DNA of 64,000 nt from an uncultured Methanosarcinales archaeon (GTDB lineage: Archaea > Nanobdellota > Nanobdellia > Woesearchaeales > CAZYIM01). This document shows, piece by piece, positions 16,739 through 64,000 of the stretch. A program made the position numbers and the translations under genes. Each line of letters begins with the position of its first letter. Positions within the stretch are counted from its first letter, which is position 1. The notes beneath the pieces are model-generated. The model was not told where the DNA came from, made no database searches, and saw only the letters and a list, made by a program, of their open reading frames with translations. The DNA lies in the NCBI GenBank assembly GCA_964647565.1, contig CAZYIM010000010.1, positions 1 through 64,000 of the forward strand, given 5' to 3'.

Positions 16739-17314
16739 TTAGTCTTTTTTCTCTGTTTTTTTCTTAGGTTTGGGTTCAGACACCTCGGATTTAGATTTGG
16801 AATCTTCTTCCTTTTTTTCAGAAATATCTTGCTTCTTAGGCTCAGAAGAACCCTGTTCATCCTCTGCCTTAGAAACATCAGTTGTAGATTCTACAGATCC
16901 TTGATCTTCTGTTGGTTCTGATTTTTCTGCTTGCTCTTTTGGAGAAGGGCGTTTCTCTACCTTAGGTTTGGCCTTAGAGGCCTCAATTTTTGCATCTAAA
17001 GGCACTTCCTGCTTAACTCGCGGAGCTTTCTTCTTTTTCATCCGAACAGGTCTCTCAGTCGCTTTCTTGGGCTTGCTCTCTATTAGTTCAATATTCAGTT
17101 TCTTGAATTCAGCCACAATGTCCGAATGAGCTGCATTTTTCTTTATTTTAATAACCTGATCTAATGGCTCAAGATGTCTATTGTTGCATTTTCTTCGTCG
17201 AGTTTGGCCATCAATCAATACATGATTTCCATCCAAAATATCCACAACAATGCACTTCAGATTTGCATCTCTGCCCGCTATTTTAATACAGATTCTTCCT
17301 ATTTCCATAACCAT
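16739..17314 (-). CDS. rpl14e: 50S ribosomal protein eL14 with long charged C-terminal tail
   Basis: IGRICIKIAGRDA..KCIVVD...VLIDG..RRRKCN..HLEP. Confidence 0.93.
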   Translation of the reverse strand: MVMEIGRICIKIAGRDANLKCIVVDILDGNHVLIDGQTRRRKCNNRHLEPLDQVIKIKKNAAHSDIVAEFKKLNIELIESKPKKATERPVRMKKKKAPRVKQEVPLDAKIEASKAKPKVEKRPSPKEQAEKSEPTEDQGSVESTTDVSKAEDEQGSSEPKKQDISEKKEEDSKSKSEVSEPKPKKKTEKKD

Positions 17315-17368
17315 TTTGTTCCTCCTAATCTCTTGTAGAACGACACCGTCACCGATGTGTCAAAGAGA

Positions 17369-35776: not shown

Positions 35777-36331
35777 TTAAAATGCAACTTTGACAGTTTC
35801 CCGTTCCTTCCCTTCTGTTTTGAAGAACTCTCTTTCGTCAAATTTGAAAATATTGGCAATCATATTTCTAGGAAACATCTGGATTGCAGTATTGAATTTC
35901 ATCACGTTATCATTATAAAACTGCCTTGAATAAGCAATTTTAGATTCTGTGCCTGAAAGCTCTTCTTGAAGCTGCATAAAGTTCTCATTTGCCTTCAATT
36001 GAGGATAGTTCTCTGCTACAGCAAATAGACTCTTTAATGCTCCGGACAGCATGTTCTCAGCCTTGGCTTTCTCCATAGGCTGTTTTGCGTTCATAATTGC
36101 AGATCTTGCTTTAGTCACGTCCGTAAATACAGATTTTTCATGTTTCGCATAGCCTTTGACAGTCTCAACCAGATTAGGTATAAGATCTGCTCGCCTTTTG
36201 AGTTGAACATCTATCTGGGACCAGGCATTATCAATTCTATTTTTTAAAACAATCAGGCTGTTATATGCACCTATTATGTATAAGATTAGGACAACAACAA
36301 CGCCTAGAATAATCCATCCGAATATTGCCAT
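35777..36331 (-). CDS. lemA: LemA family protein
   Basis: [40 protein letters not shown]. Confidence 0.96.
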
Positions 36332-36424
36332 TCATATCACCCAGAACAAAAAAAGTAACAATTCATTTAAAAACATTCTCTTTCAAAACCAAAAATGTTA
36401 AATACGAGAGAGTGTTCTTTATCC

Positions 36425-36710
36425 ATATGAGTTTAACTGTAATCAAATGGATTGAGCATTTTGTTAAATGTTATACAGTTATGACTCTAAAGATTGTTAG
36501 ACCGGCTGTGTGCTGATCTTCCCAAAAAAAACCTGGGGTTCATGCATGCGCTGGTAAACTTATTCTGCGAATGTTTGAACTCCTGACAATAAAAATTAGA
36601 GGATAGTCAGACGATCTCTGATGTCGAAGTTTTGGGATTAAAAATCACGCACTAAAATCGAGGGTATTCATCATCCCCGATGAAAATCCTGTTATGCGTG
36701 ATTTTAGATA
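36425..36710 (+). ncRNA. Candidate structured ncRNA or long cis-regulatory leader (unassigned family)
   Basis: TATA-like TTAAATA at 36398-36404 followed by a chain of stems (36434-41/36474-81, 36501-06/36550-55, 36583-87/36606-10, 36641-51/36695-705); G-U pairs favour the + strand. Confidence 0.5.
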
Positions 36711-36730
36711 AAAAGAAAAGGGTGTAAAAA

Positions 36731-37030
36731 ATGTGTGTATGTAACATATGTCAGGAGGAAGTGACCAACCCAATTTGCCCAGATTGTATGGGGGCAGCAA
36801 TAGAAGAATGGCTGCAATATATGGCACCCCATCTCATTCAGGACCTAAAGACCTGGACTGAGGCTATAAGATGGACAGGAGATACAAAATGCATTCTTTG
36901 TAAAGAAGATATGGGTGTATGCTCCTACTGTTTCCATGAACATATCACACACCTTTTTATGGATAAGGAGAAAAATCTGGTAAATCAGTTCAAAAGAATT
37001 TTCAGTCTTCAGCTAGTAGCAGAGAATTGA
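36731..37030 (+). CDS. Small Cys-rich putative zinc-finger protein
   Basis: Four CxxC pairs (CNIC, CPDC, CILC, CSYC); GGGTG SD upstream. Confidence 0.75.
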   Translation: MCVCNICQEEVTNPICPDCMGAAIEEWLQYMAPHLIQDLKTWTEAIRWTGDTKCILCKEDMGVCSYCFHEHITHLFMDKEKNLVNQFKRIFSLQLVAEN

Positions 37031-37124
37031 TTTATCTTTTATTTTTTTGAAAAAGATGAACCCCCATTTCATTTATACTTACAATGTAAGTAAAATAATA
37101 ATGCGTCGACGAGAAAAATTTAAG

Positions 37125-37146
37125 TTCCAAAAGAAAACAAGGGGGT
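37125..37146 (+). promoter_or_regulatory. ORB-like Orc1/Cdc6 binding site upstream of tbp
   Basis: TTCCA-aaa-GAAA-acaa-GGGGGT has the same spacing as the oriC ORB TTCCA-gtg-GAAA-cgaa-GGGGT. Confidence 0.5.
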
Positions 37147-37262
37147 ATAAATTATTGAAAATAATGGTTGTATAATAAAAGCATTTATAAATAAATAAGA
37201 ATTCCATTTAAAAAGGAAAGATAAAATAACAAGACGTTTCATGGGGGAAACAGGAGGTTAAA

Positions 37263-37838
37263 ATGAAATCTGCAAAAGATAAAGCAAAAAAAGATTCTAC
37301 AACAAAACGAGACATACAAGTTGTAAACATAGTTGTTTCAACAAGTCTTGAACACGACATACCCTTAGAAAAAATGGCGGCCATGTTGAGTAACACAGAG
37401 TACAATCCTGAGCAGTTCCCTGGCCTTGTAATTCGAATAAAGGATCCAAAAACCTCTGCTTTGATATTCAGCTCCGGAAAAGTTGTGTGCACAGGCGCAA
37501 GGAGTATGAATAAAGTTGAGGAGTCAATCCAGAAAATTATCGGAAGTTTAGAGAAAATAAATATAAAGATCAAAATAAAACCTAAAATCAGCATACAAAA
37601 CATTGTTGCTTCAGGAAGCATAGGTATGGACCTGAATTTGAATACCCTTGCAATGAAGCTTGACAATACAGAATATGAACCAGAACAATTTCCAGGTCTG
37701 GTGTACAAGCTAATGGAAGCAAAAGCTACATTTCTTCTATTCAGCAACGGAAAAGTGGTTTGCACAGGAACCAAATCTGAAGAAGAGGTTCATGCTGCCC
37801 TTGACCTGCTAATTGAAAAATTAAAAAAAGTTAAGTAA
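37263..37838 (+). CDS. tbp: TATA-box binding protein
   Basis: Two repeats of NIV.S...EY.PEQFPGLV...L.FS.GKVVCTG. Confidence 0.98.
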   Translation: MKSAKDKAKKDSTTKRDIQVVNIVVSTSLEHDIPLEKMAAMLSNTEYNPEQFPGLVIRIKDPKTSALIFSSGKVVCTGARSMNKVEESIQKIIGSLEKINIKIKIKPKISIQNIVASGSIGMDLNLNTLAMKLDNTEYEPEQFPGLVYKLMEAKATFLLFSNGKVVCTGTKSEEEVHAALDLLIEKLKKVK

Positions 37839-48753: not shown

Positions 48754-49050
48754 ATGAAACTGAGGTTTATAAATATTTACGTTAAATGAAATATATAATA
48801 AAAAATAGATTATTTAATGCACACAAGACACCCCTTCGTTTCCACTGGAAATAGTTCATTTCGAATTTTCAGACTACAATCAGCACAAAATCAAAGTCGC
48901 GTTCAAGCACGTTTTTTTGTTATATTTTATGTTATATATATTATATTATATTATATTATAATATATATAATATATAATAATTTTCTATATAGAAAAAAAT
49001 AAAAGGTTGTTTTTTTAGGAAGATGTCTTTTCCAGTGGAAACGAAGGGGT
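48747..49050. other. Chromosomal replication origin (oriC): inverted ORBs flanking an AT-rich DUE
   Basis: Perfect 22-bp inverted pair ACCCCTTCGTTTCCACTGGAAA (48830-48851) / TTTCCAGTGGAAACGAAGGGGT (49029-49050); nearly pure A/T tract at about 48915-49003; adjacent to cdc6; extra ORB-like site at 48747-48765. Confidence 0.93.
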
Positions 49051-49197
49051 TCTCAATATAAAAACTGTGATTTAATCATTGAAAAGTGATTACAAAATCA
49101 AAAGGTTTAAATATTAGTTGTCTTTTTCTCTCTATTAATCAGTAGTTACAATTTAGATATACCTAACCAATTATTTAAACAAAACGAGTGATTAACA

Positions 49198-53215: not shown

Positions 53216-53350
53216 TTTTTTTTATTGACTGAGAAATCTTGTTTTTTAGACGCTATTTTCGAAAAGTTTATATATTCCGAGCAGTATTCTCCTCTATAAG
53301 AGACTTTTTTTAACAGACTAATTGTCTGAAAACCTAGAGGGGTGAATTAA

Positions 53351-53584
53351 ATGGCAGAAAAAGTTACAAAAGTGGGTGTTAAGAAAGAAAGTGGTTGGCT
53401 CTATTTTGTTGACAAAAAGGGCAATGTTTCTAGGGCTAAAATGGCTCGTGGTGGAGGCAAAAAAGGAAAGCAAAAATGTGAAGATGTTCCTAAAGTTGGT
53501 GTTAAGAAAACATCAGGCTACCTATATATTGTTGACAAAAAAGGAGATGTTTCTAGAGCCAAAATGGATCGAGGTCGAAAGTAA
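53351..53584 (+). CDS. Small basic protein with a tandem duplicated domain
   Basis: Two copies of KVGVKK.SG.LY.VDKKG.VSRAKM.RG; strong SD GAGGGGTGA; T-tract terminator after the stop. Confidence 0.85.
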   Translation: MAEKVTKVGVKKESGWLYFVDKKGNVSRAKMARGGGKKGKQKCEDVPKVGVKKTSGYLYIVDKKGDVSRAKMDRGRK

Positions 53585-53644
53585 TTTTTACATATTTTTT
53601 TTTTTTTAACAACATTTTAATAAAGTTCTTTCTTCCCTGAGTTA

Positions 53645-61611: not shown

Positions 61612-61646
61612 AAATTTAAATACCTGATAATAAATTAGGTTCTTAG

Positions 61647-64000
61647 ATGGGAAAAAAAAGAGGTCAGTTTACAATATTTATAATTCTAGGCTTAGTGTTG
61701 GTCATCTCATTTGCACTTATACTTTTCATCAGAGATCTGGCTTTGCAGGGGCAAGCCAAGATTGAGGCTGCTACTGCTGTCCAGGATTTCCTTCAGCAGT
61801 CAACTCTTCAGAGTTATGTTGAATCTTGTCTTGAACAGGCTACAACAGATGCTATTGTTAAGCTGGGGTTGCAAGGTGGTGCTCTTTATTTACATCAAGA
61901 TGGAGATGTAGATATAACAACTCAGCCTGATGGTAATGTTACTATTCCCTTTAATGTCACAGAATATAATGAGACATATGATGTTTCTTATGGTATAACC
62001 TTGCAAAATGAGACTTGTATAAATCCTTCTGCACCAAATTATCCATTTCAATATAAGAATTTTCAAGAAATACTGCTGTTTTTTCTTGGAGGTGATTGTT
62101 TTGGAGGGCCTTATGGCAGGCGTTCACTTTCATTGCTTTGTAATGCAGATGGGCCAAATAGCCTTGAAGTGCGTACAGACCGAACAGGTAACGTCAAAAT
62201 ATTTGACTGCTCTCAAAATGAATATTCAAAAGCAGGAAATGTCCAGAATTCCTTGGAAAATTATATAGCTAAAAAAGTGCAGAGTTGTGCAGACTTTTCT
62301 ATTTTTGAACAAAGGTTTCAGCATAACATATCTGTTGGGGTGGCTCAAACAACAGTTATTTACGGAAATTCTGGTATAACAGTTAAATTGCACTATCCTG
62401 TTACAGTGCTAGTTTGGGGTAAACGGCCTATCATTGATTTTATGGATTTCCAGATTAAAAAAGATATACGATTGAAAAGGTCATTTGATATTGCAAGAGA
62501 GCTTATAAGAAAAGAGTCACAGGAGATATTCTTTGATCCTGCCAATCAGACGCAAAGAACAAATGATGCTAGTTTGTATGGGTTGCTTGACTCTTCTTTT
62601 TTTATTGAGGTTATACCTAATTCTTGCGTGGGTTGTACAACTCTTGGTGCTTATGACGATGTGATGCGGATTTATGATAATTATTCTTTGATCAAGGGCA
62701 AGCCGTTTATCCTAGAGTTTGCCATAAAGAACAGAAGACCTGTGCTTGATTATATCAAATATGAACCTATAGATAGGTTCGACTATGTAGTTCCTGCTGG
62801 TGAAGAGATATTCTTCAAGCCAATAGGCAAGGATGCAGACGATGATCCTGTCAACTACACCTACAAAGGCTGGAGAGAGAATTATTATACTGATTTTGAT
62901 TTTGATTGTTGTAAAGCAGATACAGTACCTCCTGGTAATGGTGCAAAATGCATCAACCAGTGTCAGATAAGAAAGAATGTAGTCAAGAATAACTGGACTA
63001 AATCTTCTGAATACCTAACCACCCAGCATAGCGCCAATTACATGACCAATTTAAGTGACTCAGGCTGGCACTTTACATCTGTCTGGATCCAAGAACCATC
63101 TGGACTGGTCGATTACCAGAATGTCTCTATCTTGGTCTTTAATCTGCCCAACCCTGTACTTGAGGTCTCTAACATTTATTCAGATATCAATGATTCACAT
63201 GCGTCTATTGAAGACCCATATACAATGACAACCATAGGTTCACATATCGACTGGTTCAATGCCACGATTGTTAACAGGACTTATTTCAGGCTAGCGGGTA
63301 ATGATCAGTTTAATGTGACTAAAGCAATAACATCATTGGATCTACCCTTAACAACACGCAATATTTCAAATATAACAGAGACCATATTTACCAAATCGAA
63401 CTTTGTACCCTCTCCTCCTGACCAATATAAAAAATATCAATTAAATTTCACGCTCTTTGCAAAATACTCATTACCCCCCATGGAATTCTGGACAGTTCCA
63501 GTTACCAAAGATGTTGAAGTTTATGCCTGTTTACCCTACAGGACAACAGCTGCAGCTCCAGATATATTCCCTTATACTGACACTTTATCTGGAGATGATC
63601 CTTTCCTCGCCAACCACAGCTGCTGTCATGATGGTACAACTGGGAGTCCTTATGGGACTATATTTGGCATTGGAGAAAACCAAGTATGTTTCAATGAATC
63701 TGAATTTGGGCCTTTCTTTGCATTTGATCTTAATAAATACAAGAAACCACAGCCATTTGGTCTAACAGCAATATCTATACCCTATTCTTCTACCCAAACA
63801 TTCAGCATGCCTGCAGATATAAATCGGCCTGAAGCGAACGATATCTTTACGCGGACATTTAATAGGTATTGTGATGGTAAAAGAGGCAATATATGCAACG
63901 GAAGCATGACAGATGATTTTGAAATCACGCCGGCTAACCAATGCTTTGACGGTGAAACCTGGCAAGAAGAGCGTTGTGTAGGGCCTCACCAGGATTATTT
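61647..64000 (+). CDS. Large Cys-rich surface protein with class III (pilin-like) signal peptide; 3'-truncated (not in ORF track)
   Basis: MGKKRG/QFTIFIILGLVLVISF; YVESCL...LGLQGG; frame read by hand is open to the window end (at least 784 codons); many N-x-S/T sequons. Confidence 0.85.
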   Translation, partial: MGKKRGQFTIFIILGLVLVISFALILFIRDLALQGQAKIEAATAVQDFLQQSTLQSYVESCLEQATTDAIVKLGLQGGALYLHQDGDVDITTQPDGNVTIPFNVTEYNETYDVSYGITLQNETCINPSAPNYPFQYKNFQEILLFFLGGDCFGGPYGRRSLSLLCNADGPNSLEVRTDRTGNVKIFDCSQNEYSKAGNVQNSLENYIAKKVQSCADFSIFEQRFQHNISVGVAQTTVIYGNSGITVKLHYPVTVLVWGKRPIIDFMDFQIKKDIRLKRSFDIARELIRKESQEIFFDPANQTQRTNDASLYGLLDSSFFIEVIPNSCVGCTTLGAYDDVMRIYDNYSLIKGKPFILEFAIKNRRPVLDYIKYEPIDRFDYVVPAGEEIFFKPIGKDADDDPVNYTYKGWRENYYTDFDFDCCKADTVPPGNGAKCINQCQIRKNVVKNNWTKSSEYLTTQHSANYMTNLSDSGWHFTSVWIQEPSGLVDYQNVSILVFNLPNPVLEVSNIYSDINDSHASIEDPYTMTTIGSHIDWFNATIVNRTYFRLAGNDQFNVTKAITSLDLPLTTRNISNITETIFTKSNFVPSPPDQYKKYQLNFTLFAKYSLPPMEFWTVPVTKDVEVYACLPYRTTAAAPDIFPYTDTLSGDDPFLANHSCCHDGTTGSPYGTIFGIGENQVCFNESEFGPFFAFDLNKYKKPQPFGLTAISIPYSSTQTFSMPADINRPEANDIFTRTFNRYCDGKRGNICNGSMTDDFEITPANQCFDGETWQEERCVGPHQDY

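Follow-up and report, generated by a model that had tools for sequence, protein, structure and literature searches.

PATEs, the ends of IS200-IS605 elements and REP-BIME sequences are moved by Y1 (HUH) transposases, and are built of sub-terminal hairpins on one strand and of palindrome pairs. The pneumococcal BOX and the Neisseria Correia elements are composite modules with stable folds, frequently inserted just 5' of genes, where they become parts of leaders. To our knowledge, archaea have so far provided very few examples of cis-regulatory RNA, and leaders of the attenuator or riboswitch type are rare there. A census of MITEs that includes archaea (PMC11602168) has, in its text, a Woesearchaeal genome among the densest, with 105 MITEs per Mb.

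The stretch of DNA analyzed here (the window, 64,000 nt) is contig C10 of a 2.68-Mb assembly, 87% complete; the relatives used for comparison are genomes of the same order, 0.6-2.3 Mb in size. Genes in the window usually abut, as had been remarked in a first-pass annotation of the locus: gaps between ORFs of at least 80 aa have a median of 17 nt, and 10 of 66 reach 200 nt or more. The gap studied (36332-36730, 399 nt) separates lemA, on the minus strand, from a 99-aa four-CxxC ORF on the plus strand. Three further inter-ORF gaps measure 429-490 nt (16879-17368, 48754-49197 and 53216-53644), and the largest of the window (61612-63456) runs for 1845 nt without an ORF of at least 80 aa and without an Rfam match at gathering score. 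The annotation had described about 290 nt of the studied gap as one candidate structured RNA, and the helices that it listed, (i) to (v), as well as a TATA-like word, were all found in place when the sequence was read. The features of the region are:

35777-36331, minus strand: lemA, the divergent neighbour, outside the element (Pfam LemA, E 5.3e-65)
36398-36404, plus strand: TTAAATA, a TATA-like word
36421-36485, no strand assigned: hairpins of part (i), of unexplained origin
36434-41/36474-81: closing stem of helix (i), TAACTGTA/TACAGTTA
36501-06/36550-55: helix (ii), ACCGGC/GCTGGT
36520-27/36630-37: helix (iv), TCCCAAAA/TTTTGGGA
36641-51/36695-705: helix (v), the 11-bp stem AAAATCACGCA/TGCGTGATTTT
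36720-36724, plus strand: Shine-Dalgarno sequence GGGTG
36731-37030, plus strand: ORF of the four-CxxC (zinc-finger) protein, 99 aa, downstream of the leader
37263-37838, downstream of the four-CxxC gene: tbp (Pfam, E 5.8e-62)

The gap probably combines two structured elements that are unrelated to each other, a native leader hairpin and an inserted copy of a repeat. This reading draws on family membership, copy numbers, covariation, strand biases, an empty site and the spacing of the leader, which are presented in the following paragraphs.

Folded as RNA, 36400-36730 reaches -90.9 kcal/mol on the plus strand (z -4.22, equalled by 0/100 shuffles) and -74.6 kcal/mol on the minus strand (z -3.81). 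Since the minus strand also folds well, much of the signal corresponds to plain palindromy. The parts of the gap were then scored on either strand, with 200 shuffles each. Part (i) gave z-scores of -2.3 (plus) and -3.8 (minus), part (ii) (36496-36560) of -4.4 and -1.5, and the hairpin of the 11-bp stem (36640-36706) of -6.5 and -4.4. Part (iii) (36561-36628), whose hairpins had been annotated as structured, folds at chance level (-0.3 and +0.5). No Rfam family was matched at gathering score in the whole window; the best sub-threshold match within 36250-37300 (E 1.7) is junk, and the 11 orthologous zinc-finger loci gave 0 matches at the gathering cut-off. ARAGORN found no tRNA. An SRP RNA or RNase P RNA identity was discarded, both RNAs being located on contig C4. 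The SRP RNA (G000:C4:72228-72550) scores 94.4 bits, just below its Rfam gathering cut-off of 96.5.

The overall fold (z -4.2), the lack of an Rfam match, the TATA-like box at 36398 and the 16 kcal/mol by which the plus strand is more stable than the minus would all fit a single novel RNA, riboswitch or sRNA, spanning the whole ~290 nt. This is nonetheless highly improbable, and largely refuted, because the 3' part of the gap is a multi-copy repeat: its 119 nt recur at 30 or more places per genome in some relatives, in unrelated contexts, while the repeat module is present, at E <0.19, in 0/11 orthologous zinc-finger loci. Parts (i) and (iii), moreover, are without homologues. When the gap was compared by BLASTN with 60 relatives, 36630-36714 was the only segment matched, at many places per genome. 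The copy is made of the following parts:

36589-36592, plus strand: ATAA, the proposed host target of the insertion, repeated at 36708-36711
36593-36640, plus strand: reduced module A and TTTTGGGATT junction (model R2, 36586-36640, 15 bits, E 0.068)
36641-36711, plus strand: module B, with the helix (v) stem, a CTAAA...GGGTATT...CCCC core, then AGATAA (BLASTN, nhmmer, model R1)

The repeat family is defined here by models R1 (module B) and R2 (module A). R1 matches 36629-36711 with 78.9 bits (E 1e-16), nhmmer gives an E of 5.2e-11 with a profile alignment that starts at 36617, and BLASTN finds many copies of module B in genomes G020, G042, G053, G050 and G055. The window has both defining traits of module B, a stem of the type A4-5 N6-7 / N6-7 T4-5 and the CTRAAG ... 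GGGGTATT ... CCCC core. Module A abuts it and keeps the junction GTTTTGGGATT; its CTAAAG core hairpin is missing, and the R2 match is weak. ATAA is found at both boundaries, as in most copies of the family. What had been annotated as parts of an RNA, namely stem (v) with its competing register and one arm of (iv), TTTTGGGA, belongs to a multi-copy repeat that has no RNA-type strand bias, and the single ~290-nt RNA is replaced, over 36593-36711, by a dispersed repeat copy.

A canonical copy consists of ATAAC(A/G)AAAA, module A, TTTTTGGGATT, module B and C(A/G)ATAA, for a total of 90-211 nt. Module A is a nested hairpin around ATCC-stem-CTAAAG-stem-GGTATTA, and module B a long stem around its core. 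R1 matches at E <=0.001 are found in 45/151 genomes of the order, a count that includes the unpublished genome G131. Copies number at least 30 in each of G041, G047 and G055, 28 in G139, 27 in G057 and 2 in the genome of the window; six genomes have 21 or more matches. A pattern scan over one genome per species returned 101 stretches. The titles of the 80 that were listed name Woesearchaeota, Nanoarchaeota, Nanoarchaeia or Nanobdellota in 59 cases, "uncultured Methanosarcinales" in 15, an "archaeon" in 4 and bacteria in 2; viral contigs gave 0 matches to the repeat pattern.

Several observations bear on the mobility of the family. Eight copies in G055 are 93-98% identical to one another, and many copies lie at contig ends. 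The right end is ATAA in 30/36 family copies, and the left end is ATAAC-like in 26/32. At one orthologous site G017 carries a copy that its congener G144 lacks; in both of these genomes the ATAA on the left belongs to the stop-codon context of the gene upstream, and is thus host sequence. Judged from sequence, a target-site duplication and insertion beside ATAA by an element ending in ATAA would be indistinguishable. In G020:C57 (L011 1084-1752) a 157-nt copy splits an ORF, both halves of which are in one frame (157 - 4 = 153 nt). The split ORF adjoins a nucleotidyltransferase-like ORF, and its first half matches Pfam HEPN at E 0.069 only; neither half showed similarity to the neighbouring HEPN-like ORF when each was compared with it for evidence that the split ORF is one gene. 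A second copy was found inside an ORF, the copies being otherwise intergenic. For the window itself, contigs identical to it were found in four DNA runs, and the joint that would indicate an empty site was absent from all four.

The stems of the family are supported by covariation. In module A, 17/22 pairs show compensatory changes and 82.8% of the cells are paired, a result reached by 0/500 shuffles; in the stem of module B the figures are 4/11 pairs and 90.9%. A pseudoknot in module B (GGGATT/AATCCC) was dropped, since only 63.9% of its cells are paired. Mismatches within the repeat are G-T in 22 cases and A-C in 33, and the plus strand is the more stable in the copies of 10/24 genomes, the minus strand in 14. 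Having no G-U strand bias, the repeat appears to act at the DNA level, as a mobile element. Its termini score a likeness of 7.7/14 within a copy and 7.6 between genomes, so that the co-varying terminal inverted repeats of a strict MITE are absent from the family. As the two ends of a copy show no particular likeness to each other, recognition seems to be based on hairpins and loops rather than on such repeats. Stems that covary around fixed loops (CTAAAG, GGGTATT) and fixed junctions, with no co-varying terminal inverted repeats, point to recognition of hairpins in single-stranded DNA.

Conservation of loops and junctions across many GTDB families, with stems that covary, would also be expected if the repeats were small RNA genes or other RNA-level elements (terminators, guide or antisense RNAs) and the window copy a working module of the zinc-finger mRNA. 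A T run follows each hairpin, and a copy of another subfamily abuts a zinc-finger orthologue in G055. With respect to the next downstream gene, 18 copies have the same and 11 the opposite orientation (n=29; naive ORF calls, leaving out the two copies of the genome of the window and two loci without a downstream ORF), and 13 of the 18 co-oriented copies end within 75 nt of the gene start. The difference in orientation, however, is not significant. Against an RNA family stand also the lack of any excess of G-U over A-C and of any strand preference in stability, the interruption of ORFs, the near-identical copies within genomes whose assemblies they break, and the site occupied in one genome but not in a congener. 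We consider an RNA family quite unlikely, and prefer to read the repeat as an element of DNA.

Searches for an autonomous partner of the repeat found none. Three lone-end sites in G055, examined as candidates, were explained by truncation, by a contig end or by a second repeat nested in the copy; this different repeat, of ~130 nt (CAAAAATTAGCAACCACCAC...), is seen inside two-hairpin copies at L056, L060 and L114 of G055. The IS200-type Y1 transposase (PF01797) occurs in 21/45 genomes with the repeat and 35/106 without, a weak enrichment, and in 4/10 of the highest-copy genomes (11 copies or more), a test weakened by the incompleteness of the MAGs. At 18 loci, no Y1 transposase was flanked by an R1/R2 pair, two strong R2 matches being ordinary nearby copies, and the TnpB zinc-ribbon family was found in 0/5 high-copy genomes. 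Tiny hairpin doublets (A5-stem-T5, GGGAT, A5-stem-T5) lie just 5' of the IS200-type Y1 gene at L115 and L119 of G139, one copy of the gene having extra doublets that the other lacks.

A second subfamily of the repeat was noticed in the genome of the window (G000), at C19:39062-39340, C7:83272-83372, C4:62545-62650 and C26:7330-7530. It has the left end ATATCATAAAAATT, the module-A 3' arm GGCGAATTTTTAGGA, the right end AGCATAA and large internal expansions. In L144 (G055:C41), a stretch at ~1330-1470 that abuts the start of the zinc-finger orthologue was assigned by eye to this subfamily, R1 giving 14.3 bits only. If that assignment is accepted, the copies in the leader regions of the window and of G055 would represent two independent insertions.

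Relatives of the four-CxxC protein occur in 38/151 genomes of the order, one per genome, with 24-39% identity. The protein has no Pfam match above cut-off and no NCBIfam match; its nearest Atlas clusters are annotated "hypothetical protein" of Nanobdellota/Woesearchaeota. A related-locus search of metagenome contigs for relatives of the protein confirmed none. The upstream gap measures 190-610 nt in the 7 orthologous loci whose neighbours were resolved by naive ORF calls. The gene lemA, which had been proposed as part of a syntenic setting, is beside 0/11 orthologous zinc-finger loci, and tbp follows the zinc-finger gene in 3/11, in addition to the window. The TBP proteins of the window, L139, L141 and L144 are 83-87% identical across GTDB families of the order, and the zinc-finger proteins that adjoin TBP in L139, L141 and L144 only 27-33%.

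Regions upstream of 32 zinc-finger orthologues were surveyed by k-mer counts, which surfaced the Shine-Dalgarno sequence (GAGGTG in 21/32 regions), TATA-like words and the 11-mer GGGTTCTTGCA. The longer word GGGTTCTT is present in 5/32 regions, with 0.07 expected. Allowing up to 2 mismatches, the 11-mer is found in 12/32 regions, 79-195 nt 5' of the protein match, and is missing from the other 20. At all 12 loci a complementary arm (arm C) follows the arm that contains the 11-mer (arm B) after 14-46 nt, with 10-15 of 15 positions paired. From arm C to the Shine-Dalgarno sequence the distance is mostly 6 to ~24 nt, and ~50 nt in L143.

Covariation of the B:C helix was evaluated on an alignment of 11 loci, which leaves the window out. 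Overall, 86.4% of the cells are paired and 8/14 pairs show compensatory changes; the share of paired cells and the covariation score were reached by 0/500 shuffles, and pairing fell below 50% when the partners were slid. Conservation of arm B, and a promoter-proximal position before a gene often next to tbp, would suit a DNA operator bound by a transcription factor. For an operator, however, the spacing of the arms should not vary as it does, and mismatches in B:C are G-U (G-T) 19 times and A-C 3 times, the sense strand being the more stable in 10/11 loci. Duplex DNA would be expected to show neither the G-T excess nor the sense-strand stability, and RNA both; we hold the operator to be very unlikely.

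Model R3 of the leader matches 12/151 genomes, once in each, always on the same strand as the zinc-finger gene and just 5' of it, with 0 matches in the 113 genomes without that gene. Eleven of the 12 matches are its own training sequences, picked by motif, and the one in G027 is new; independent support for R3 therefore consists only of the single-copy pattern, of G027 and of one metagenome contig, a further member with the zinc-finger gene 83 nt downstream. An alternative pairing, A:B, joins arm B in at least 6 loci to a segment that lies upstream of it, GGTAAGAAC. Here 78.3% of the cells are paired, with little covariation (compensatory changes at 3/10 pairs), and mismatches are G-U (G-T) in 23 cases and A-C in 2. 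When metagenomes were scanned for the A..B pattern, 6 distinct matches were obtained, the gene following in 1 and being absent after 5; the short A..B pattern alone is thus unspecific. A short stretch, ATTATG..TGGTAAGAAC, is conserved in 4-5 loci. It had been considered as a leader peptide ending in ..IM.W-stop, with a shared GGTAAAC word (the peptide expression matches 5/32 sense and 0/32 antisense strands), and is now read as the nucleotide motif TGGTAAGAAC, that is, arm A.

In the window, the leader hairpin and its competitor are located as follows:

36534-36584, plus strand: conserved leader hairpin, arm B at 36534-36548 (TGGGGTTCATGCATG) and arm C at 36570-36584 (AATGTTTGAACTCCT) (R3 and 11-mer)
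36496-36560, plus strand: hairpin (ii), competitor of the B:C hairpin, both using TGGGGTTCATGCATGCGCTGGT

On the strand of the gene, the window copy carries arm B, (C)TGGGTTCTTGCA, with a complementary arm C, the two features by which the leader is defined; arm B differs from the 11-mer by one mismatch, and 12/15 positions of B:C are paired. R3, built without the window, finds its best match within 35800-37300, both strands searched, at 36466-36586 on the plus strand (15.1 bits, E 0.02), where 14/14 model pairs are standard; with default filters over the full 64-kb window the match is not reported. Arm B doubles as the 3' half of hairpin (ii): 36496-36590 folds as hairpin (ii), at -27.4 kcal/mol, and 36496-36586 as B:C, at -26.9. 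Arm C ends 135 nt 5' of GGGTG, or 16 nt when the 119-nt insert is subtracted, and only after this subtraction does the spacing fall within the 6-24 nt of the relatives.

The low score of the R3 match and its loss under default filters could mean that the resemblance of 36534-36584 to the leader is fortuitous and the gap a graveyard of decayed repeat copies. Weak module-A-like matches are indeed present at 36586-36640 (plus strand) and 36384-36474 (minus strand; R2, inverted, 11.6 bits, E 0.32), and other diverged copies are on the contigs C19, C7, C4 and C26 of the same genome. Yet homology of 36340-36616 to the repeat copies of its own genome was tried and rejected (z <=1.1; no profile match at E <=100), the top R3 match falls on the expected strand and place with only standard pairs, the Shine-Dalgarno spacing is normal once the insert is removed, and hairpin (ii) is strongly strand-biased, which the repeat is not. 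We regard such a graveyard as unlikely, and retain the leader hairpin beside the repeat copy. The annotated riboregulator of the four-CxxC gene accordingly survives as the conserved, strand-specific hairpin at 36534-36584, and not as the whole ~290 nt; of the annotated conformational switch, the competition of a second pairing (hairpin ii) with B:C is kept, and the TTTTGGGA arm of (iv) is given to the repeat.

Within the gap, some 130 nt, at 36405-36495 and 36561-36588, fit neither the leader hairpin nor the repeat. Part (i) found no homologue in the genome of the window, nor among 300 genomes of the order. In BLASTN of 36340-36640 against the same 300 genomes, matches did not exceed 57 nt and fell mostly in the A/T-rich first 60 nt; these tallies include the unpublished genomes G131 and G182. 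TTAAATA is present upstream of zinc-finger orthologues in 13/32 regions, with 2.8 expected from shuffles and 8 on the opposite strand, and the copy at 36398-36404 is possibly a promoter of the leader.

A mechanism can be proposed along these lines. If it is transcribed, as we infer, the 5' leader native to the four-CxxC gene would carry the conserved RNA hairpin B:C at 36534-36584. Because arm B pairs with either A or C, the leader can take two mutually exclusive folds, which in the window would be hairpin (ii) and B:C, of almost equal predicted energy. The choice between them may set the amount of zinc-finger protein by acting on the stability of the mRNA, on premature termination or on the access of ribosomes, and a candidate trigger is binding by the zinc-finger protein itself. 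A 119-nt copy of a non-autonomous Woesearchaeota repeat (36593-36711) would then have been inserted at ATAA between the hairpin and the Shine-Dalgarno sequence. Most simply, the element would have entered at ...GACAATAA|AAAG..., between leader hairpin and ribosome-binding site, the uninterrupted site presumably being ...CTCCTGACAATAA|AAAGAAAAGGGTG. The repeat itself would be selfish DNA, and we infer a transposition chemistry in which a transposase provided in trans recognises its hairpins in single-stranded DNA.

Conceivably, though this is doubtful at present, the B:C / A:B leader switches between two states as a regulatory RNA peculiar to Woesearchaeota (DPANN), and controls a double zinc-ribbon protein that is restricted to the lineage and often encoded beside tbp. 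A literature search found no paper naming both Woesearchaeota and riboswitch. If true, the leader would add a new class to the cis-regulatory RNAs of archaea, and the 119-nt displacement in the window would be a natural experiment on the need of the switch for closeness to the ribosome-binding site. In any case, the leader is a concrete and testable candidate, being conserved, strand-biased, endowed with two competing hairpins and placed before an uncharacterised zinc-finger gene. The repeat deserves attention because assemblies break at it, because it inserts into genes as well as leaders, and because scans can mistake it for "structured RNA". The count of G-U against A-C mismatches cleanly separated the two kinds of structure, and can be reused.

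Compared with known systems, the repeat resembles MITEs in being small (90-210 nt), non-coding and mostly intergenic, with many near-identical dispersed copies and a fixed short flank. It differs in that its termini are not genome-specific inverted repeats, in the conservation of two nested hairpins on the same strand with fixed loops, and in that no matching transposase was found for it; for PMC11602168 the comparison refers to the text of the census. With PATEs, IS200-IS605 ends and REP-BIME the repeat shares sub-terminal hairpins on one strand, a fixed tetranucleotide beside the insertion and modular palindrome pairs, whereas Y1 genes do not track it, no copy flanks tnpA, its hairpins are far larger and nested, and REP head motifs are absent. 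Like BOX and Correia it is made of composite modules with stable folds, frequently inserted just upstream of genes, in another host domain and with an unrelated sequence. The leader is best compared with bacterial attenuators and riboswitch platforms. Unlike these, it is archaeal and matches no Rfam family, it has no consistent U tract after C, its Shine-Dalgarno sequence lies outside the hairpin, and neither a ligand-binding domain nor a leader peptide is established for it. It has in common with them a shared arm, B, that pairs with either A or C, a single-copy occurrence before one gene family, and G-U pairs on the sense strand.
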